From a candidate division FCPU426 bacterium (lineage in GTDB: Bacteria; Oederibacteriota; Muellerivitia; Muellerivitales; Muellerivitaceae), in assembly GCA_963796105.1 (NCBI GenBank), contig CAWCKJ010000003.1:544001-608000 (forward strand): a stretch of 64,000 nt of DNA. The letters run 5' to 3'. Below the pieces are notes generated by a model. The model saw nothing but the letters and a program-made list of their open reading frames with translations. It made no database searches and had not been told where the DNA came from. Every line of letters begins with the position of its first letter. Positions within the stretch are counted from its first letter, which is position 1. Below are positions 37,164 to 62,367 of this stretch, in pieces. The translations under genes were made by a program, and so were the position numbers.

Positions 37164-37750
37164 GCGGTTTCGGGCGCCTGGATCGGCCCGTTATTCTTAA
37201 AGAGGCTCAATAAGGTATCGCCGTATTTCTTCTGCCTCACCAGGGGATAAGGAAATTCCAGGTCCAACTCAGTATCCTTGGCGCCATGCTCGATAGCAAG
37301 GATCCCCCCTTCCCGCAGAATGGGATATTGCGTCAGAAGGCGCTGGATGCGCATTAAAACCCCGATTTCATAGGGCGGATCGGCCAACAGGATATCAAAT
37401 TTCCTTCCCTCTTGATGAAGCAAATAAAAGGCCCTGGAAACCTCCATCTCCATGATGCGGATGCCGTTTTGGGGGTCTTTCGGGTTGAGTCCCAGTTCCT
37501 GGAAGTTTTCTCGGATAAGCCTCAGGCTCTCAAAAGCGTTCTCCACGAACACCACTTCCGAAGCCCTCCGGCTGAGGGCTTCCAGGCCCAAGTTCCCCGT
37601 GCCCGAAAAAAAATCCACAACCGAACAGCCGGCCAGAGGCTCCAGCATATTAAACAGGGCGCCTTTGACCTTGTCCCCGGTTGGCCTGATTTTCATGTTC
37701 TTGGGGGCCTTGACGGTCCGGCTTTTTAATCTACCAGCGATGATTCTCAT
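37160..37750 (-). CDS. rsmD: 16S rRNA m2G966 methyltransferase
   Basis: MRIIAG, RPT..VKGALFN, EALSR, DPPY. Confidence 0.93.
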   Translation of the reverse strand: MRIIAGRLKSRTVKAPKNMKIRPTGDKVKGALFNMLEPLAGCSVVDFFSGTGNLGLEALSRRASEVVFVENAFESLRLIRENFQELGLNPKDPQNGIRIMEMEVSRAFYLLHQEGRKFDILLADPPYEIGVLMRIQRLLTQYPILREGGILAIEHGAKDTELDLEFPYPLVRQKKYGDTLLSLFKNNGPIQAPETA

Positions 37751-50289: not shown

Positions 50290-50862
50290 TTAGTAGGCGC
50301 CCGTGGTCTGCCTGTAGGCGTCCCAGAACCTGCCAGTAGGCGGCCGGGATCTGCTAGTAGGTGCAACCGTGCCGACGGTGGTTCCCGACTATGCCGACGG
50401 TAGTTTCAGGCTATGCCGACGGTGGCTCTTGACCATACCTACGGTAATTCCAGACCATGCCGACGGTGGCTCCCGACCTCATGAATACAGGACCCCCAAA
50501 TCGTGCCTACAGGACTTCCGGCCTAGCTATACGGAACTGGGTTATCGGTTTTCCGAATACTGGGTTGAGCCCCCCATACTGGTTTGTACTGGGTTGGGGC
50601 TTCCAATACTGGGTTGCGGGTTTCCCGAATACTGGGTTGTACTGGGTTGGGGCCTCCAATACTGGGTTGAGGGTTTCCCGAATACTGGGTTGTACTGGGT
50701 TGGGGCCTCCAATACTGGGTTGAGGGTTTTCCAACTACTGGGTTGTACTGGGTTGAGCCCTCCAATACTGGGTTGAGGGTTTTCCAAATACTGGGTTGTA
50801 CTGGGTTGGGGCCTCCAATACTGGGTTGAGGGTTTTCCAAATACTGATATGTACTGGGTTGG
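50290..50862. repeat. Left part of multi-family tandem repeat field (21-22 bp units, then 53-bp TACTGGGTTG units)
   Basis: GTAGG at 50293/50314/50336/50357; GCCGACGG-type units every 22 bp over 50371-50459; ACTGGGTT cores spaced 23+10+20. Confidence 0.9.
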
Positions 50863-51120
50863 TGTCACTGGCCAGCCACTTTAACCCCCCTGGCCGCCTA
50901 CTTTGCCCCCCCTCTTTTGGGCACTTCGAGGGGTGCCTGTTTCGGGGACTTCGACCCCTGCCTTGCGGGGCCTCTTTTTTAGATTAATTTAGACCCATCA
51001 AACTCCTTTCACAAGATGCGTTTTGCTTCCCCAACATTGGATGATACGAAGTCCCGCGCAAATCCCGTAACCAATAGGCGCAAGATTGCACGAATAAGAC
51101 AGCATCGAACGATGGGTTTC

Positions 51121-51900
51121 TCATAGTTTTGCCTCTTTTTCCCTGCTGTGTTCTTTTTTCATTTCTTCGCGCATGGAACGGGTCCGAAAGGAAGGGCCCT
51201 GAATGACGACGGCAGTGGCATGGTGGACCAGGCGGTCCATGGCAGCCGAGGCTAGGAGGGCGTCGCCGAAAAGCTCCGGCCACTCCCGCAGACTGCGGTT
51301 GGTGGTAAAAATCAAGGAGCCCTTTTCATAACGCTCACAGATGATGTCGTAAAAATCCTCGGCGACCTTGGTGTCGAAGGGCTTGAGACCCCAGTCGTCC
51401 AGGATCAAGAGGTCGGGTTTCAGGAAGGATGCGAATCGGTTTTCCCAGGTACCGTCCCCGCGCGAGGCCGCTAATCGTTGGGCCGCATGCGAGGTCTTGA
51501 TAAAGAGTACCTCATAACCCTTGCGGCAGACTTCATGGGCCAAAGCGCAGGCCAAATGGGTTTTGCCCACACCTGAGGGACCGATGAAAAATAGGTTCTC
51601 TTTTCGCTCCACGAAAGAACAAGTACCCAAATCCAGGATTTGTTGCCGGTTGATGGCCGGGTTGAAGGCGAAATCGAACCCCGTTAGAGTCATATGGGTT
51701 GAGAAGCCCGCCTTTTTCAGCCTTCTTTGGAGTTGGCCCACTTGGCGGCGCTCCAGCTCATCCAACAGCAACTGGCCCAGGAAATCCATATAACCGATCT
51801 GGGATTCAATGGCCTGCTGGTTTCGGATTTCCAGCGTCTCCAACATACCTGCGAGTTTTAACCTTCTCAGGTGCGGCTCCAACTGATGTTTATTTTCCAT
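51121..51900 (-). CDS. istB: IS21 helper ATPase
   Basis: GPSGVGKTHL, LLILDDWG, TTNR, AMDRLVHH, GPSFR. Confidence 0.95.
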   Translation of the reverse strand: MENKHQLEPHLRRLKLAGMLETLEIRNQQAIESQIGYMDFLGQLLLDELERRQVGQLQRRLKKAGFSTHMTLTGFDFAFNPAINRQQILDLGTCSFVERKENLFFIGPSGVGKTHLACALAHEVCRKGYEVLFIKTSHAAQRLAASRGDGTWENRFASFLKPDLLILDDWGLKPFDTKVAEDFYDIICERYEKGSLIFTTNRSLREWPELFGDALLASAAMDRLVHHATAVVIQGPSFRTRSMREEMKKEHSREKEAKL

Positions 51901-51913
51901 ATATGCTTCCTCC

Positions 51914-53470
51914 TCAATTTTTATCCAGAGCCAAGGCACGGAGGAAATCCTCCGCGGGCCGGGCGAAATCGAAAGACGACTGGGGTTTGAGTGAAGGATC
52001 CGACGGCGGGTCCAACGGGTTTTGATCGAGGTTCTTTTGAAGGATGTTTTTGATGGATTGGTACGTGTAGTTTCCGAAATGGAGGGCCCTTAGACAGGCT
52101 GCCTCCAGACGGGAAGGCAGGTACTTTTCCCTCAAGCGCAGAATGCCCTGGGCTTTGCGCAGATGGTCCAGGGGGTGGGAGTGTTCCAGCAGGAGTTGGA
52201 TTAATTGATGGGTATTAGGTCCAATGGCCTGGGCCTGTTTGAGGCACCATTGTGGGGTTCGTTCCAAGAAGACCGCTTTTTCAGGGGGATAGTGGCCCGG
52301 GTTGGTGCGCCAGGTTCCCTTGCGTGTGGCCTTGGCGTGGGAAGCCACGCATTCGTGTTTGAGAAATATATCAACGGTGGTGTCGGTTAATTGGGCCAGT
52401 AGTTTTTGGCCCCGAAGACGGTAGGGAGCCGAGTAATAGGAACCTTCCACGACTACGTGGCAATCGGGGTGCAGAGTGGCTTCTTTGAAGAAAGTTGGAT
52501 GGTAAGCCGCGGTAGGCAGGGGCAAAAGGGCCTTCTGTTCCACGCTCTGGAAGACGGCCAAGGGTTGAAGCCGGGTGGTGCCATGATCCCGTAAACCTGC
52601 CTTGTTCATCACCCAATCGCGGAGTTGATGGTTGGCATCGGTGCGGCCCTGGAAGGAACGACCCTTGAAGAAGGAATTACGGACATAGGGCACGCCGCGT
52701 TCAACTTTACCCTTGTGGCGTGGAGTGGCGACGCGGCAAGGGGAGATGATGAAGCCGTAATGGTTGGCGCATTCCACGTAGGTACGGTTGGCCAAGGGAT
52801 CATAGAGGGCCGCCTTGACGATGGCGCTTTTCAGGTTATCGATTACGATTTTTTTAGGGACTGAATTGAAGAACTCGAAAGCCCGGCGGTGGCAGGCGAT
52901 CCAGGTTCTCACGTCCTGTGCGAATACAATCTCGGCGTACATATGCCGGGAATGGGAAAGGGTCATCACGAAAACCCAGGCCTTGGCTTGCTTGCCACGC
53001 GTCTCGTCCCACAAGCGGCCCAAAAGCCCGAAATCCACTTGGGCCTCCTCGCCGGGCGCAACCTCCAGCCTCACGTAGGCGGGTTTCTCATTGCGAAAAG
53101 GCTCCGTATACCTCTTCAGGGTCGAGTAACTCCCCTTCCACCCGTGCCGCTCTTGAAGCATCTCCTGGATGCGAATCAAGGTGAAATCTTCCTTCAACCA
53201 TTCTTGGATGATTCCCTTGAGGGCCTCCAAGGCATGAGCGGGAACGGGCGTGGATTTTTCGCCGTCTTCCCAAGCCTTCGCCAAATCCTTTTCCAGGGGA
53301 AGTTCCCCTTGGAGAAAGCCATGTTCTTTCGCCCAACGCACGTATTGCTTGACCGTGTGCTTATTGCATCCCAGGGCCCGGGCAGTGGGTTTGAACCCGC
53401 CCAAGGCCTGGTAAGTCCTCAAAATCTCACGAATAGTCGCCATGTCGCTCTGCCTCCCTTGTCGGGTCAT
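51914..53470 (-). CDS. istA: IS21 DDE transposase
   Basis: PGEEAQVDFG, LSHSR, DNLKSA, KGKVERGV, YYSAP. Confidence 0.95.
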   Translation of the reverse strand: MTRQGRQSDMATIREILRTYQALGGFKPTARALGCNKHTVKQYVRWAKEHGFLQGELPLEKDLAKAWEDGEKSTPVPAHALEALKGIIQEWLKEDFTLIRIQEMLQERHGWKGSYSTLKRYTEPFRNEKPAYVRLEVAPGEEAQVDFGLLGRLWDETRGKQAKAWVFVMTLSHSRHMYAEIVFAQDVRTWIACHRRAFEFFNSVPKKIVIDNLKSAIVKAALYDPLANRTYVECANHYGFIISPCRVATPRHKGKVERGVPYVRNSFFKGRSFQGRTDANHQLRDWVMNKAGLRDHGTTRLQPLAVFQSVEQKALLPLPTAAYHPTFFKEATLHPDCHVVVEGSYYSAPYRLRGQKLLAQLTDTTVDIFLKHECVASHAKATRKGTWRTNPGHYPPEKAVFLERTPQWCLKQAQAIGPNTHQLIQLLLEHSHPLDHLRKAQGILRLREKYLPSRLEAACLRALHFGNYTYQSIKNILQKNLDQNPLDPPSDPSLKPQSSFDFARPAEDFLRALALDKN

Positions 53471-53633
53471 GCCGTTCTCCTCACATGAAGTGAAAAAAGA
53501 AAGGAATGACGGTTAGAGAGGCCCTTGGCAAGGGGGTCAAAGTCGGTGGCCAGACAGGGGGTCAAAGTGACTGGCCAGAGGTGGGGTCAAAGTGCTTGGC
53601 CAGCTAGGGGGTTAAAGCTCGCGGCCAATGACA

Positions 53634-54530
53634 GTTGGGGCTTCCAATACTGGGTTGAGGGTTTTCCAAATACTGGGTTGTACTGGGTTGAGGCTTCCAA
53701 TACTGGGTTGCGGGTTTTCCAAATACTGGGTTGTACTGGGTTGGGCCTCCAATACTGGGTTGAGGGTTTTCCAAATACTAGGTTGTACTGGGTTGGGCCT
53801 CCAATACTGGGTTGTGGAATCCTGAAACCTTGGAACTGGCTTGGAACCACGGAAATCACGGCTCCGGCCAACGAAAACCACGGCACCGGATGGCGGAAAT
53901 CTCGACGTCGGACGACGGAAAGCCCGTCACCGGACGATGGAAATCCCGCACCGGACGGTGGAAATCCCGACATCGGATGGCGGGAACCCCCTCCACGTAT
54001 GGTGGAAATCCCGATTCTGCGGTCAGGACTCCCGACACTTGCGGGCAGGGCATCCAGCATCTGTGGACAGGCTTCCGACACCTGCGGGCAGGGCTTTCGG
54101 CACATGCGGGCAGGGTTTCTCGTCACCGGACGGCGGAATATCCAGTGGTGATTCGCGCAATACCCCCAAAACTCTTTTAAAAAAGCATCCTGCCCAGCGG
54201 CTGTGCAAAACCCATTTTTCCGAGGAAGTTTTGTCCCGCCACGGGACAATATTGTCACGTTAATTGGTTTAAACCCGAAATTTTGTCCCTCGGCGGTACA
54301 AATAACACCCAAGGGGTCCCAATCAAGCAACTTTTGGGCAATCGCGCAACTTCCCAATCGATTCGCGCAAGGTTGAATCGCGCAACCCTTCTATGGACTC
54401 AGGGCTGGCATCCAATCGCATGATTCTTAGCTTCTAGTCTTTACCCTGCGACGGGGCAAAATGTCGCCGAGAAACACTGCCATGTCGCCGGTAAACCGGA
54501 TATGTCGCGTGGAAAACCCAAAACTCCATT
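53634..54530. repeat. Right part of the tandem repeat field
   Basis: TACTGGGTTG units continue to ~53815; then ~21-22 bp GGAAATC/CCGGAC and TGCGGGCAGG families; then ATCGCGCAA and ATGTCGC clusters. Confidence 0.8.
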
Positions 54531-56707: not shown

Positions 56708-56844
56708 GATTAATTCCTTATCTAAAAAAGCATTTATCTTCTGTCTTTTCCGGCCGTCAGAAATTAAGTTGGTTTAAGATAAATTCGCAATTTAATATTT
56801 CTTAAGAAATTCTGCTCACAAAGTTCTCGTAGAATACTTTTAAA

Positions 56845-56923
56845 TTATACATCCCGGCCTTTGAGCCAAAACCAAAGGGTTCCAACTAGGCCGAAGCCAG
56901 TGGCGGTAAAAAGGTTCAATTCC
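56845..56923 (-). pseudogene. Stranded diverged copy of the MFS gene 3' end
   Basis: Encodes ELNLFTATGFGLVGTLWFWLKGRDV*, versus ...GLIGT... at 57246-57324. Confidence 0.9.
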
Positions 56924-56967
56924 AAAAAAGGTGATTATCCTTAATAAGCCACATTGGTTTTTCATTA

Positions 56968-57114
56968 TCACTTGGGTTCTAAAAGAATTTTCTTCCACAA
57001 AGGAATTATCGGAATCTTTTTTCCATTGATCGTCTTTACCCCCTCCTGCTCAAGGGTTAGAATGCCTCCCTTTTTAACGCCCAAATTGGAAATAACCACC
57101 AACAGACCTTTTAT
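56968..57114 (-). pseudogene. C-terminal remnant of a COG1373-like (AAA_14/DUF4143) ATPase
   Basis: IKGLLVVISNLGVKKGGILTLEQEGVKTINGKKIPIIPLWKKILLEPK*; recognised by pattern only. Confidence 0.55.
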
Positions 57115-57245
57115 TAACCAGTTCTACAATGTAAACACTTTTAGCAATAATCGTTTACATTGTAATATCACCATCTATTCCCTCCAGGACCACTTTCCCC
57201 TCTCACGGGCATTGTCTTTATCCCAAAGAAAGTTCTTAAATTCAC

Positions 57246-58448
57246 TCAAACATCCCGGCCTTTGAGCCAAAACCAAAGGGTTCCGATCAGGCCGAAGCCA
57301 GTAGCAGTAAATAGATTCAATTCCGGGCTAAATGCCCAAAGAAAAGCTCCCCCTAACGCGGCAAGCGACACGATCGTGTCCCTTAAAAGATAATAAAGGC
57401 CGAACATTCCGGCCTTTTGATCCTGCGGAGCCAATTCCAAGATAAGGGCTTTGCGGGCCGGTTCCCCGAATTCCTTTAATCCCCTCAAGACAAACACCAA
57501 TGCCAGCCACCAGAACGAACGGCTGAAATAAAGACAGAGGGGGAATGCCGTGAAAAAGAAAAAGGTCATCAAGACAAAGGGTCGTTTCCCAGCTTGATCT
57601 ACCATTCGGGCGACCGGAAGATAAACCAGAAAGGCAGTCCCCATTTCAATAGCCGTCAGGGTTCCGAAATCAAAAGCTGTCACCGGATGGGTTATTTCCT
57701 TCATGCACCAAAGAATGACAAAGGGGTAGGGTATCTGCTCACAGAACCGGATGAGAATATCCGAAACCAAAAGGCTTCTTAAATCTGGAACCATCTTGCT
57801 AAACAACTTGAAAGGGTTGCCAATCGCCTTACCCTCTCCCTTCCCCGCTTCTCCCATCAAGGCCCATAGGACACCCGATCCTATTAGGCACATAACCAGG
57901 GCCAGGTAAAAGGCCATCCGGACCCCGTCCTTATCCCCATAGACCCCTATGAGGTAACCGCATAGGAGCGGTCCCACAGCCATTGGCACCCGTCTAACCA
58001 AGGAATGTAGGGCGACCCCCATTGTGTGTTTGCTGGAGGGCATGACCTTGGAAACCAGGCTCATGGCGGGTGGCAAGGAAACAGCGGACCAAGTGAGGAA
58101 TAAAACCGCACCAGCCACCGCAAAAACCCAGTGGGGGGCAAAGATGGCCAAAAGGTAACCCAACACCGCCAGCAAGGTGTAAAAAAGAAGGGTGTTTCGG
58201 GGACCGAACTTTTCAGAGATCCACCCAGCAGGAAAAGAAGAAAAAGCCGAAAGAAGGTTCTGGAAGAAATTCAGCGTTCCAATCGCGAAGATGCCGCCGC
58301 CCAGGGCGATAAGGTAGATAGGCAAAAACCTCTCGCCCATGCGCTCTCCCAGGCCGACCAGCATGGTGAGGATCAGCAGGCCAACTATGCTTTTCCGAAG
58401 ACCCAAAAACTCAACGATTCTCTCTTTTATTCCCCGGCTCTCTGCCAT
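57246..58448 (-). CDS. MFS transporter
   Basis: 12-TM pattern; GWISEKFGPR and RMVDQAGKRP motif-A-like loops. Confidence 0.88.
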   Translation of the reverse strand: MAESRGIKERIVEFLGLRKSIVGLLILTMLVGLGERMGERFLPIYLIALGGGIFAIGTLNFFQNLLSAFSSFPAGWISEKFGPRNTLLFYTLLAVLGYLLAIFAPHWVFAVAGAVLFLTWSAVSLPPAMSLVSKVMPSSKHTMGVALHSLVRRVPMAVGPLLCGYLIGVYGDKDGVRMAFYLALVMCLIGSGVLWALMGEAGKGEGKAIGNPFKLFSKMVPDLRSLLVSDILIRFCEQIPYPFVILWCMKEITHPVTAFDFGTLTAIEMGTAFLVYLPVARMVDQAGKRPFVLMTFFFFTAFPLCLYFSRSFWWLALVFVLRGLKEFGEPARKALILELAPQDQKAGMFGLYYLLRDTIVSLAALGGAFLWAFSPELNLFTATGFGLIGTLWFWLKGRDV

Positions 58449-58680
58449 TGATGCAAACTCCTTTTAAGGAACAACCTCAGCAAATCTTTTTGCCACGGAT
58501 GCAGGGGATTCATGGAATAAAATCCAAAAATACCCAAACATGGCTGATATGAACCGGTATTCCGAACCACGTAAAAAAAGTTTTTCCGATGGTCAAGAAT
58601 CCGCTTCATAGCCTTCGGCTAGGGTTGTTCAACCCTCTGCCACGCCTAAAAGCCTTTAAGCCATCCCTTGCATCCCATGA

Positions 58681-58908
58681 ATCCGTGGCTAAAACTTCTT
58701 TTGATTTTATCTTGTTTATTACGAAATCTGCGCCAAGTTAAGAACAGCCTGGTAACGGCTTTCCAACCTCCTTCTTAAGAACCGGTTCTCTTCCCGAACA
58801 AGGCCTGGGTCCTTGGTCACCAGGGCCTGAGCACCCCTTCTCGCTTCCTCCACCACATCCACATCCCTCTTCAAGTCCACAATCCTGCCTTCCCTGCGCC
58901 CCGACTGG
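58681..58908 (-). pseudogene. Stranded diverged copy of the recG 3' end and downstream DNA (direct repeat of 59945..60172)
   Basis: Last 62 codons of recG, 59/62 aa identical, about 17 synonymous codon differences. Confidence 0.92.
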
Positions 58909-59030
58909 TTTATCAGGACAAAAAGAAAAACCCCGCAAAAGCCTTATCCAGCTTGAGCGAGGTTCGTTTTCGGTTCGAGTGTCAGACATCAAATTTTCTG
59001 CCTTTTTTCACTTCCCCGTCATATGCATAG

Positions 59031-59369
59031 TTATCGAATATTATGTTTTCTCGCCTTTTCAATCTCATTAACAAATTCCACACGGTCTTTTGCGCTATCC
59101 CTTAGTCCCATGCCAAGAACCTTTTGTGCATGAGGCTGAATAGCCTTCATAAACGCCTGCCATTTAGGGTCGTTCGATTGCAGGTCTTGTGCTATCGCCC
59201 GGTCAATAGCTTCACGGGCATACGAGGAAAAATCCTCTACTTTTAGTTCCCGCATGGCCTTAAACCAATACTGCCTTTGCCGTGGGTCAACCCGGAACCG
59301 AAGCATAGCCTCTTTGCGCACCGCATGCGCCGCTTGTTCCCGCTTGGAATACTTTACTAATGTTTTCAT
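59031..59369 (-). CDS. Putative ribbon-helix-helix antitoxin
   Basis: KEAMLRFRVDPRQRQYW..A......FSSYAREAIDRA; GGAGG RBS; upstream palindrome TGTAGCTACA. Confidence 0.55.
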   Translation of the reverse strand: MKTLVKYSKREQAAHAVRKEAMLRFRVDPRQRQYWFKAMRELKVEDFSSYAREAIDRAIAQDLQSNDPKWQAFMKAIQPHAQKVLGMGLRDSAKDRVEFVNEIEKARKHNIR

Positions 59370-59408
59370 CGTGCCCTCCATGACCTAATTGTAGCTACAT
59401 CGTTGCCA

Positions 59409-59732
59409 CTAGTCAACATTGGCCTTTTCCCCCGTCAGGAAAAGTTTGTAAATCCAGCAAGTTTCCTCCCAAACCTTATAAACCGCCCGAATGGTGATTT
59501 GCCTGTCTTCGCTATGAACCCAAAAGGTCATGGGATTAAATTGGTCACGGGCTGGAATCGAAAAATAATCAGGGTGGGGCGGGTATTTTCCAAGGAGCTT
59601 CTTGAGCTTTTCGTAAATCTCACCCAATATCTGGCCCTTATCTTTAATGGCCAACATAGATTTCTTCTTGGCTTCAACGCTTGGGAATTCTCGAACAACC
59701 CAATGCTTAACATCTTCCGGCCGAATGTGCAT
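59409..59732 (-). CDS. Hypothetical protein, possible divergent RelE/ParE-fold toxin
   Basis: 107 aa, basic; IRAVYKV...WIYKLF C-terminal strands; precedes the RHH gene. Confidence 0.4.
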   Translation of the reverse strand: MHIRPEDVKHWVVREFPSVEAKKKSMLAIKDKGQILGEIYEKLKKLLGKYPPHPDYFSIPARDQFNPMTFWVHSEDRQITIRAVYKVWEETCWIYKLFLTGEKANVD

Positions 59733-59982
59733 TTCCTATGCTCTCCAAAGTTTAAGGAGTCCTTCGTGTTGATTATATCCATCAAGAATTAACCCGCTAG
59801 TCCCATAAATGAAGCTTTCCGAGAGGCTTGGGCCTGAAACGCTGATCAACCGGTTGGCCGCATCCCATGCATGCCAGCCTTCTATAAAATTTAAGGAGGC
59901 TGATATCGTACCGATTTCCAAATAACTTTATATAAAATCGGCACATCCGTGGCTAAAACTTCTTTCGTCTTTATCTTGATTA

Positions 59983-62367
59983 CTAAGAAATCTGCGCAAG
60001 ATTCAGGACAGCCTGGTAACGGCTTTCCAATCTCGTCCTTAAGAACCGGTTCTCTTCCCGAACCAACCCCGGGTCTTTGGTCACCAGTGCTTGCGCATCC
60101 CTTCTCGCTTCTTCCACCACATCCACATCCCTCTTCAAATCCACGATCCCGCCTTCCCTGCGCCCCGACTGGGCCACGCCAAAAATCTCGCCGGGTCCCC
60201 TCATTTTCAAGTCAAACTCTGACAGCTTGAACCCATCCAGGGTGGAAACCATGATTTTCGTGCGCTCCACGGCTTCGGATGAAATCAATGGTGAAGTCAC
60301 CAGGAAACAATAGGATTGGGCCTCACCCCTCCCCACCCTTCCACGCAATTGGTGCAATTGAGCCAGCCCGAACCTCTCTGAATGCTCCACCACCATAATG
60401 GTGGCGTTGGATATATCCACCCCAACCTCCACAACCGTGGTTGATACCAGGAGCTGGTATTCCTTCCTCAAGAACGCCGCCATGACCCGGTCTTTTTCCT
60501 CTTTCTTCATCTTCCCATGCAACAATCCCACCCGGAACCCGTGGAAAACTTCCTTCTCGAAATAGTGGTGCATCTGGATGGCGGACTTCAGGAACAGCTT
60601 GGATTCCTCCACGACCGGGAAAACCCAGAATGCCTGCTCGCCTTTCAAAAGCCTAGACTTGACGAAATCGTAAACCTCTTGCTTACGGCTTTCGCTTTTC
60701 CAAAAAGTCTGGATGGCTTTTCTCCCCTTTGGGAACTCGTCCAAAACCGACAAATCCGTATCCCCATATTCCGTCAGGACCAATGCCCTTGGAAATGGCG
60801 TGGCCGTCATCATGAGGCAATCGGGCCGTTTCCCCTTCTCCTCCAGCGCGGCCCTTTGGAGAACCCCGAATTTATGGCGCTCGTCGATGACCAGGAAACC
60901 CAGGTTCTGGAATTGGATATCCTCCTCCAAAAGCGCGTGGGTTCCGACCGCCAGGTCAATCTCGCCTGATTTCAACCTGGCCAATGCCTCCCTTTTCGCC
61001 TTGGCCCTCATGTCCCCGGTAAAAAGCAGGATCTTCATCCCCAGGGGTTCCAAAAGGCGCGTCAAGGTTTGGAAATGCTGTTGGGCTAGGATTTCAGTCG
61101 GGGCCATGAAGGCGCTCTGGACTCCCGAGTCAGCCGCGTAGAGGAACGAGATGGCCGCCACCAGGGTCTTGCCGCTTCCCACATCCCCCTGTAAAAGCCG
61201 GTTCATGGGATAGGGCTTGGCCATGTCCTCCCGGATTTCCTTCAGGACTTTTTTCTGGGCCCCGGTCAATTGATAAGGGATGGTTTTCCGGAATTGGAGT
61301 ATTTGGCTTCCCTCAAAAACATACTGCCGTCCCTTTTCGCGCCGCTCGATTTCCCTTCGCTTGAGCAGAAGGAACGATTGGAGAAGCAGAAGCTCGTCAT
61401 AGGCCAGCCTCTTGCGGGATTCCTCGAATCGTTCAAGAGTCTCAGGCTTGTGAATGCCAAGGATGGCGTCGGCGAGCGATATTTTCTCCCTCGGTGTTTT
61501 GTCCCCCGTCTCACGGAGAAGGCCCTCATATTTCCCCAGGACGGAATTGATCGTGTTACGCCAGAAAGCCTGGTTCAAGGTCGGGGTGGAAGGGTACATG
61601 ACGACTACCTTTCCATCCCTCAGGGCCTTTTCCTCCTCCGGCAAAAGGAACTCGAAGGTCTCGCCTTTCCCCACCACCTGCTTTCCCCACTTCGACGATT
61701 GGGGCGCCTCATGGAGGATGACCCAACGGCCATTCACCATTTCTTTTTTGAGGAAGGGCCGGTTGTACCAAATCCAGGCCAAGTGCCCGCTCGCGTCCTC
61801 CAAATTCACCTTCATGGTCTCCCTCTTCCACTGGCTGGTGCTGGAGACCCCGTTGATCCGGGCAAGGATGAAAGCAGGCTCCTCCAGGTTGGCGCATTGG
61901 GCGATGGGCTTGAAGTGGCTCGCATGAAGCGCCCATTTGGGCCCGTAATAAAGCAGGTCTTCCACAGTCTTGAGGCGGGTGAGCTGGAAAGCGCGGGTCT
62001 TATCTTTTGGAATGAAGGGCAAAACCGAGTCGGACAAACTGAGCCTATGGGTCGAAACGGGGGGCGGGACTGGTATGGGCTGGTCCTGCCAGGCCTTGAT
62101 CCTGTCGCAGGCGGAAAGCACCAGCTTTTCCCGCTCCTCTTTGGATAGGGTCATGTACTGCGAAAAGGACCTGCGAAGGTCAAGGAGTTGGGCCTTTAAA
62201 TCAGCCTCAGCGGGGGCGTTCGAGGCCAGTTTGGGGGTAATTTCGTCCAGTCTTTCCAGGATATAGCGGTCCAAACCGCCGACCACGGAACGGTTCAGGT
62301 ACCCCTTTTTTTGTTCCAGAAGCAGGGGTTTCAATAATGGTTTGAGTTTTTGCGCGACCAGCGACAT
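59983..62367 (-). CDS. recG: ATP-dependent DNA helicase RecG
   Basis: MNRLLQGDVGSGKT, IDERHKFG, MTATPFPR, QLHQLRGRVGRG, MRGPGE. Confidence 0.96.
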   Translation of the reverse strand: MSLVAQKLKPLLKPLLLEQKKGYLNRSVVGGLDRYILERLDEITPKLASNAPAEADLKAQLLDLRRSFSQYMTLSKEEREKLVLSACDRIKAWQDQPIPVPPPVSTHRLSLSDSVLPFIPKDKTRAFQLTRLKTVEDLLYYGPKWALHASHFKPIAQCANLEEPAFILARINGVSSTSQWKRETMKVNLEDASGHLAWIWYNRPFLKKEMVNGRWVILHEAPQSSKWGKQVVGKGETFEFLLPEEEKALRDGKVVVMYPSTPTLNQAFWRNTINSVLGKYEGLLRETGDKTPREKISLADAILGIHKPETLERFEESRKRLAYDELLLLQSFLLLKRREIERREKGRQYVFEGSQILQFRKTIPYQLTGAQKKVLKEIREDMAKPYPMNRLLQGDVGSGKTLVAAISFLYAADSGVQSAFMAPTEILAQQHFQTLTRLLEPLGMKILLFTGDMRAKAKREALARLKSGEIDLAVGTHALLEEDIQFQNLGFLVIDERHKFGVLQRAALEEKGKRPDCLMMTATPFPRALVLTEYGDTDLSVLDEFPKGRKAIQTFWKSESRKQEVYDFVKSRLLKGEQAFWVFPVVEESKLFLKSAIQMHHYFEKEVFHGFRVGLLHGKMKKEEKDRVMAAFLRKEYQLLVSTTVVEVGVDISNATIMVVEHSERFGLAQLHQLRGRVGRGEAQSYCFLVTSPLISSEAVERTKIMVSTLDGFKLSEFDLKMRGPGEIFGVAQSGRREGGIVDLKRDVDVVEEARRDAQALVTKDPGLVREENRFLRTRLESRYQAVLNLAQIS

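Follow-up and report, generated by a model that had tools for sequence, protein, structure and literature searches.

How can a cassette with no integrase gene inside it come to lie between two copies of the 3′ end of one and the same housekeeping gene? The question is raised by a stretch of 64,000 nucleotides (hereafter the window) from a candidate division FCPU426 bacterium (GenBank assembly GCA_963796105.1, contig CAWCKJ010000003.1, positions 544,001 to 608,000), in which the helicase gene recG is followed, behind a small cargo, by a second copy of its own tail. Here the in-frame 3′ end of recG is called tail A and the stranded one tail B. A first-pass annotation of the window had taken the locus as a recG end replaced by a foreign allele that carried in a cassette. 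The reading that we favour, with modest confidence, is that of an insertion-duplication scar: two recG alleles surround what is likely the gutted remnant of an integrative element that targets Rhs-type genes, and a recombinase supplied in trans probably joined the end of this element to a site within recG.

Are the two tails really two alleles? The repeat 58681-58908 and 59945-60172 aligns over 228 bp with 27 mismatches and no gaps (88% identity, offset 1264), and each copy takes in the final 62 sense codons of recG together with the stop and the next 38 bp, with 1036 bp between the copies, in agreement with the first-pass annotation. Synonymous differences affect 17 of these 62 codons and non-synonymous ones 3, and the stop codon varies as well (TAG against TAA); by the Nei-Gojobori method, the synonymous divergence (dS) between the tails is 0.53 and the non-synonymous divergence (dN) 0.036. 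The earlier claim that both copies evolved under selection also stands, and it bears directly on the possibility that the recG end was duplicated locally in tandem, later split by the cassette, and diverged in place. Under duplication and neutral decay of the stranded copy, the expected share of synonymous changes is 0.39, while 17 of the 22 substitutions are synonymous (P = 2.6e-4). The codon test therefore rejects such a plain local duplication, to which we leave next to no chance, and judged from the codons the repeat is a pair of alleles of separate origin, which diverged under selection. Homology between the tails is longer than first described: it resumes beyond a 72-bp twin-hairpin element that interrupts tail A and runs to 59860, opposite 58670 in tail B. 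This element is one of a multi-copy family, with 138 BLAST matches in the genome at E<=0.1, part of them arranged in tandem, and because it is missing from tail B, it was likely inserted into tail A later. Units of 72-76 bp, flanked by CA and either single or in identical tandem copies, can be seen at C2:112809-113345, C2:120579-121175 and C2:158414-158989. When the tails are set against that of a congener (G001), it is tail B that departs at all three amino-acid differences, one of which puts an Arg where 34/34 loci of the family have Gly; thus, tail B has likely decayed slightly since it was stranded.

This congener keeps the order of recG, a palindromic spacer and the MFS transporter gene, but each gene has a single tail and the cargo is absent, so that an empty site is available for comparison. 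The insertion proposed by the first-pass annotation is borne out by this site, but its claim that the in-frame copy is the foreign one is not: the G001 tail differs from tail A at 31 positions and from tail B at 33, with dS to G001 of 0.51 and 0.39 for the two tails, and the distance between A and B is comparable. Since the three are roughly equidistant, the sequence does not tell which copy was resident. GC content at third codon positions and dS along recG do not discriminate the direction either, and recG supplies the homology for an anchor with no crossover point that can be placed along it. At the other scars where direction was tested, G001 is equidistant at most, and recR and a flavin reductase gene lean to the in-frame copy by a few bases. 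From the geometry alone, tail A is probably the incoming allele. Tail B would fit the resident, because it runs into DNA collinear with the empty site of G001, provided that the crossover lay at or upstream of the 5′ edge of the repeat.

Where, then, does the cargo begin and end? Its ends are defined, which had escaped the earlier note. Next to tail B lies a conserved element terminus, here called END, and the last 5 bp of its arm overlap the first bases of the tail. A model of END built on 13 copies was searched in 31 genomes of the family and gave 20 matches in 12 of them; four matches were dropped (two cut before the arm, one partial, one a reverse self-overlap), leaving 16 copies in 11/31 genomes. 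Conservation stops at the arm. Behind it, 7-8 bases away, an inverted arm follows in which an Rhs-type xNRL-like motif can be read in 8/16 copies; two of these eight copies were outside the training set of the model. The remaining joints are Rhs-like by eye (2/16), meet the stranded tail of an upstream host gene (2/16) or lead into other DNA (4/16). Small gene pairs lie upstream of most END copies, with Pfam matches to toxin-antitoxin or helix-turn-helix families for 6 and nothing for several others. The exact END pattern had no match in viral contigs and one in the GTDB collection, apparently the G018 copy, and across 99 genomes of the phylum the matches outside the family were all weak.

At its other side, the cargo ends in a short Rhs/YD-repeat fragment, which shares 8 bp (59860-59867) with a REP-like palindrome. 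This boundary is identical at 28/29 nt to a YD-repeat stretch of the L025 and L026 genes, and related stretches occur in L024 and L022. The cargo boundaries each coincide with one half of a 12-8-12 inverted site found intact at Rhs-type motifs in relatives, and a cassette in G022 has both half-sites as in the window, without a tail duplication. Because END is usually joined to an Rhs-type motif and the left cargo end lies at the same motif, the cassette is likely a gutted Rhs-targeting element. Transposon-like terminal inverted repeats of the cargo were considered and dropped, the left copy being an Rhs-type coding stretch. Elsewhere on the same contig, at C3:323698-323843 of this genome (G000), the END arm and the Rhs-type arm behind it form a perfect 12-bp inverted repeat, and the 8-bp spacer and arm of that copy recur 3.3 kb downstream (C3:327147-327180) without END. 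Positions of the features are collected in Table 1.

Table 1. Features at and around the recG scar (positions in the window, whose first letter is position 1)
Feature	Position	Strand	Remarks
recG, intact, 794 aa	59983..62367	-	Open reading frame; Pfam DEAD, Helicase_C, RecG_wedge, RecG_dom3_C
Tail A: in-frame 3′ end of recG (62 codons plus stop) with 3′ flank and REP-like palindrome	59860..60172	-	Split by the 72-bp element
Twin-hairpin repeat element, 72 bp, between two CA dinucleotides	59872..59943	.	Interrupts tail A
Left cargo end: short Rhs/YD-repeat fragment reading WDAANRLISVSGPSLSESFIY	59801..59867	-	Holds 12-bp arm 59843-59854
RelE/HigB-fold toxin (predicted), 107 aa	59409..59732	-	AlphaFold, Foldseek, Atlas
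Probable ribbon-helix-helix (RHH) antitoxin, 116 aa	59031..59381	-	Atlas NikA/RHH clusters; position behind toxin
END, conserved element terminus, ~126 bp	58904..59029	-	Starts with TATGACGG motif; hairpin ~58927-58964; final 12-bp arm 58904-58915
Tail B: stranded recG 3′ end with its own 3′ flank	58670..58908	-	Downstream continuous with the empty site of the congener
Two REP-like palindromes, inverted relative to each other, separating tail B from the MFS gene	58487..58694 (58487-58518 and 58663-58694)	.	Repeats of this kind also at other genomic sites
MFS transporter gene, 400 aa	57246..58448	-	Pfam MFS_1
Second, separate scar: MFS 3′ end duplicated around ~320 bp of degenerate low-GC DNA	56840..57324	-	No END

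These boundaries also bear on the suspicion that the assembly has fused two strains into a chimera. In the one run found, X1 (7% of words), no contig passes across both copies; it gave two exact contigs, 57448-57612 and 58671-58880, neither of which crosses a junction, and the latter, of 210 bp, lies inside tail B with zero differences. A chimera is nevertheless very improbable: the copies differ by 12%, tail B is changed at an invariant residue, both cargo boundaries coincide with defined half-sites, the reported contamination is 0.32%, and like scars are found in other assemblies.

A second host gene has met END in the same way. When host-tail duplications were sought beside END copies, over 1.4 to 19 kb upstream, a case emerged in G043 (L133, 9838-10054 and 11089-11249, ~81% identity), where the two tails surround a small gene pair and the stranded one begins 1-2 bases past the END arm. 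In both the recG and the G043 case the joint sits at the conserved terminus, and its position is thus fixed, unlike in other scars. A further END at C3:528357 was not counted as a host-tail case; it abuts a umuC-like tail with no umuC gene upstream. At this place (G000:C3:528100-528468, L129), END is cut short beside the umuC-like 3′ tail and a repeat that is also on C14, C15 and C16.

How far is the recG scar one of many? The first-pass annotation had set it beside the scar at the neighbouring MFS gene and proposed one repeated, integrase-free mechanism for both. In the MFS repeat (57241-57324 and 56840-56923), 7 synonymous changes and 1 non-synonymous change fall in 25 codons, and one frame of its cargo (56924-57240) resembles, by eye, what we take to be a decayed small AbrB-like gene. 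For a genome-wide scan for stranded 3′ ends, the genome was compared with itself, taking low-copy repeats of 40-700 bp whose second copy lies outside long open reading frames, which were called mechanically. A gene 3′ end is repeated downstream in 19 cases, a few of which may be spurious owing to the mechanical calls, against one case upstream, the wrong-direction control (P = 4e-5); 5′ ends gave 7 and 2, and mid-gene pieces 5 and 4. The 19 stranded tails are 51-448 bp long and 83-98% identical to their intact counterparts, with varied junctions, and 13 gapless cases pooled hold 87 synonymous and 45 non-synonymous codons. Their host genes include those for TatD, RecR, an RsmI-type methylase and a periplasmic binding protein, and their cargo includes HicAB, HigBA, PIN-RHH, HEPN-nucleotidyltransferase and DUF4143 genes. 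END is present only at recG among these 19, and a common junction motif, sought by eye across the scars, was not found. The pattern therefore recurs as proposed, but the shared mechanism falls away, since the recG cargo ends at END and the MFS cargo does not, and 19 tails with END at a single one and no shared motif do not speak for one self-spreading mechanism. Homology-anchored displacement of gene 3′ ends is routine in this lineage, and there is more than one way of making the second joint.

Some of these scars have been built upon repeatedly. The 3′ end of recR is stacked twice in G000 (C4:1273824-1273977, L159) and three times in G001 (C4, L164 2483-2730), with the copies only ~33 bp apart. 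At G000:C8:77479-80689 (L153), an RsmI-type methylase gene has two stranded tails in series, which separate an AlbA_2/Fic-like gene and a DUF1016 gene. The stranded tails at G000:C12:185130-185170 and C4:1338900-1338923 begin right after the same short motif, which closes a GGGGTCA/TGACCCC-type hairpin, and the latter adjoins genes that resemble, by eye, REP-associated tyrosine transposases. Such a hairpin end is possibly a second class of fixed end.

Do we need any recombinase at all? Plain homology-facilitated illegitimate recombination would have a linear donor fragment pair within recG and its far end fuse by microhomology within the recG of the recipient, the terminus being at the joint merely for its short match or its hairpin. 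This explanation accounts for the other scars of the genome, with their varied lengths, identities and junctions, for the stacked recR tails with almost no cargo, and for independent recG scars that have other breakpoints and no END. At the present locus it agrees with the overlaps at both cargo boundaries (5 bp between the END arm and recG, 8 bp at the left), and an anchor model of this kind is put forward in a study of type VI secretion system (T6SS) effectors (PMC5361080). What plain illegitimate recombination explains poorly is the position of the joint, which lies in the final 5 bp of a terminus that bounds the element in other genomes, and the repetition of this at an unrelated gene in G043; random fusion on a fragment of kilobase scale would rarely give that twice, by a rough reckoning rather than a computed one. 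We therefore regard it as somewhat unlikely for recG.

A different possibility is that the locus is a decayed gene-restoring island whose own integrase targeted recG and which carried the recG tail in its attP, in the manner of islands at tRNA genes. An intact gene and a displaced 3′ fragment bracketing the cargo are the signature of such islands (PMC4383910), and END resembles an att end. Against this, no END matched at any other recG locus screened. The screen took in 94 recG loci, of which 74 have at least 1 kb downstream, and found duplicated tails at two others (L038 and L062), with breakpoints ~44-47 codons from the end and without END. Together with the lack of an integrase in cis and the Rhs-type motif as the usual partner of END, this makes a recG-specific island improbable. 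The two other scars (L038 6472-8216 and L062 1335-2242) arose independently in another clade; both contain related, internally repeated spacer DNA, and that of L038 carries, by eye, a Phd/VapC-like pair.

Which enzyme, then, could have joined END to recG in the reading that we favour? No Xer-like recombinase matched within the 64-kb window by tblastn. The earlier statement that the cassette has no integrase thus holds in cis only. The cargo ends at a conserved terminus resembling a recombinase site, so that a recombinase encoded elsewhere likely took part in the recG joint. Tandem XerC/D-like genes are found at 12 loci in 9/31 family genomes, most of them beside genes that read by eye as YD-repeat-type, and their best family is NF002331/PRK01287, below the curated cutoff. 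In G008, an XerC-like gene (NF002331, E 4.7e-68, also below the curated cutoff) precedes an END by ~1.7 kb, both being on one strand. The arm of this END, identical over its 12 bp to those of G019, G024 and G000:C4, is joined to an Rhs-type motif; the copy scored E 0.079 before its inclusion in the model, and the contig stops before any partner gene. In G013, behind a recombinase pair come a small gene pair, a similarly laid-out segment and an Rhs gene, and the END model gave no score there. One clear and one weaker locus thus suggest a link between END and this enzyme family. The association of Xer and YD-repeat genes is not confined to this family, since a homologue of the tandem Xer genes stands among YD-repeat genes on the megaplasmid of Ralstonia GMI1000.

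The tandem genes are part of larger elements, which hold a large primase-like gene and two tandem XerC/D-like genes, often with a small gene pair (G008:C248, L150 1592-4308; G013:C3, L149 6708-14344). Further ones are at G000:C8:195362-202329, L024 and L141-L148, one is tandemly repeated in G015, and the end region of these elements runs in frame into a YD-repeat gene. Pfam did not confirm the putative primase genes, for which NCBIfam gave one weak dnaG match. In the open-access literature we found no paper describing Rhs-associated tandem-Xer elements, a result which subscription papers or supplements could overturn.

The cargo itself, both genes of which lie on the recG strand, is predicted to be a type II toxin-antitoxin pair of the RelE/ParE-like kind. 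The 107-aa protein has no match in Pfam or NCBIfam and none in a sequence search of the PDB; AlphaFold folded it with a predicted local distance difference test (pLDDT) score of 85.6 from an alignment of 5 sequences and of only 41 from the single sequence, Foldseek gave HigB (5ycl) and RelE (1wmi) as best matches, and the Atlas assigns it to RelE/ParE at 0.92. The toxin sequence is on record for 2 contigs, which may be a single assembly deposited twice and were given no weight. The 116-aa protein has a ribbon-helix-helix likeness in the Atlas only (NikA/RHH clusters, 0.90-0.92), with no significant Pfam match. Related gene pairs are present at other sites in genomes of the family.

How might these pieces have come together? 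In a donor species, a mini-element made of an Rhs stub, the toxin-antitoxin pair and the terminus would have landed just behind recG, where a REP-like palindrome mimics the Rhs target over 8 bp. A recombinase in trans would then likely have joined the terminus of this mini-element to a 5-bp look-alike located 62 codons into recG, and this would give a circle of ~1.2 kb with the recG tail of the donor, or else the same joint may have been made during uptake. Homologous recombination through recG would finally bring the piece into the present lineage, with recG kept whole and the other tail stranded. Later, the toxin-antitoxin pair might have helped retention, while the stranded tail would have started decaying and the 72-bp repeat would have entered the other copy. 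More tentatively, and here we are ourselves rather doubtful, displacement of Rhs tips in this family may be driven by a dedicated tandem XerC/D-like system acting on a 12-8-12 site half-written in YD-repeat codons; integrase-less toxin-antitoxin mini-elements would hijack this site, and off-target joints would capture gene 3′ ends, such as those of recG and of the G043 gene, as homology handles into other species.

Several observations weigh against a recombinase-made joint at recG. Thirteen of the 16 END copies served to build the END model, most Rhs assignments are motifs read by eye, and a clear left half-site is seen in only 2/13 END copies examined, those of the window and G022. The recG site matches 5 bp of one arm and the second arm is missing, and a check for clean integration failed, because the flanking 8-mers differ and lie ~240 bp apart in host coordinates. 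The other 18 scars of the genome and the recG scars of L038 and L062 formed without END, so an Xer-like enzyme is not needed for such scars. As for the candidate recombinase, whose activity on END is putative, the model scored END at only 1/12 tandem-Xer loci (G008), the other loci having different ends; the pair of this genome (C8:198698-200627) shares 44-45% identity with the G008 gene and ends differently, so that it does not place the cognate enzyme in this genome. Finally, G001 favours neither tail as the resident allele (31 against 33 mismatches).

The surroundings of the locus carry other traces of insertion. The rsmD gene, which directly follows recG in many loci of the family, lies here ~22 kb downstream (window 37193-37750, or C3:581193-581750); thus, a good deal of DNA has been inserted behind recG. 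At 50370-54180 of the window, istA/istB genes of the IS21 family (51121-53470) stand between arrays of 53-bp and 22-bp repeats, and the same arrangement recurs at C6:82900-86900.

To which known systems does the recG scar belong? Homology-facilitated illegitimate recombination is known from Acinetobacter, Pseudomonas stutzeri and Streptococcus pneumoniae, and the recG scar shares with it a candidate homologous anchor, one joint of short overlap and the lack of an integrase in cis; it departs from it in that the non-homologous joint lies at a conserved element end twice independently, at recG and in G043. Gene-restoring integrative elements are represented by e14 and phage 21 at icd. Like the tDNA islands of Islander (PMC4383910), the locus has a restored gene at one end, a displaced 3′ fragment at the other and an att-like hairpin end; unlike them, it has no integrase, a cargo of less than 1 kb and, in the recG loci screened, no sign of recurrence at this position. 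With the tandem XerC/XerD elements beside YD-repeat genes, it has in common an END homologous to that of G008 and a left end at the Rhs half-site, whereas the cassette of the window has lost all genes of the recombinase element.

Closest in outline is C-terminal displacement, described for Rhs tips, where a circular intermediate is proposed (Jackson et al., 2009, PMC2935791), and for T6SS effector modules (PMC5361080). The two papers invoke homologous or illegitimate recombination and state that an integrase is not known or shown. As in these systems, a 3′ end that arrives with genes attached takes the place of the resident one, the latter being left farther downstream as an orphan, and the recG cassette even starts with an Rhs-type stub. 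Unlike in those descriptions, recG encodes a housekeeping helicase whose two tips code for nearly the same peptide, and one boundary of the cassette is at a fixed terminus, which was found once beside an XerC-like gene. The scar itself is ordinary: displaced 3′ ends are already known from Rhs loci, T6SS loci and integrative islands. What is new here is a lead on how the transferable piece is made, consisting of a terminus, a candidate YD-repeat target and a candidate recombinase family; if it is true, it links the shuffling of polymorphic toxins, the scattering of orphan toxin-antitoxin pairs and the exchange of alleles in core genes.

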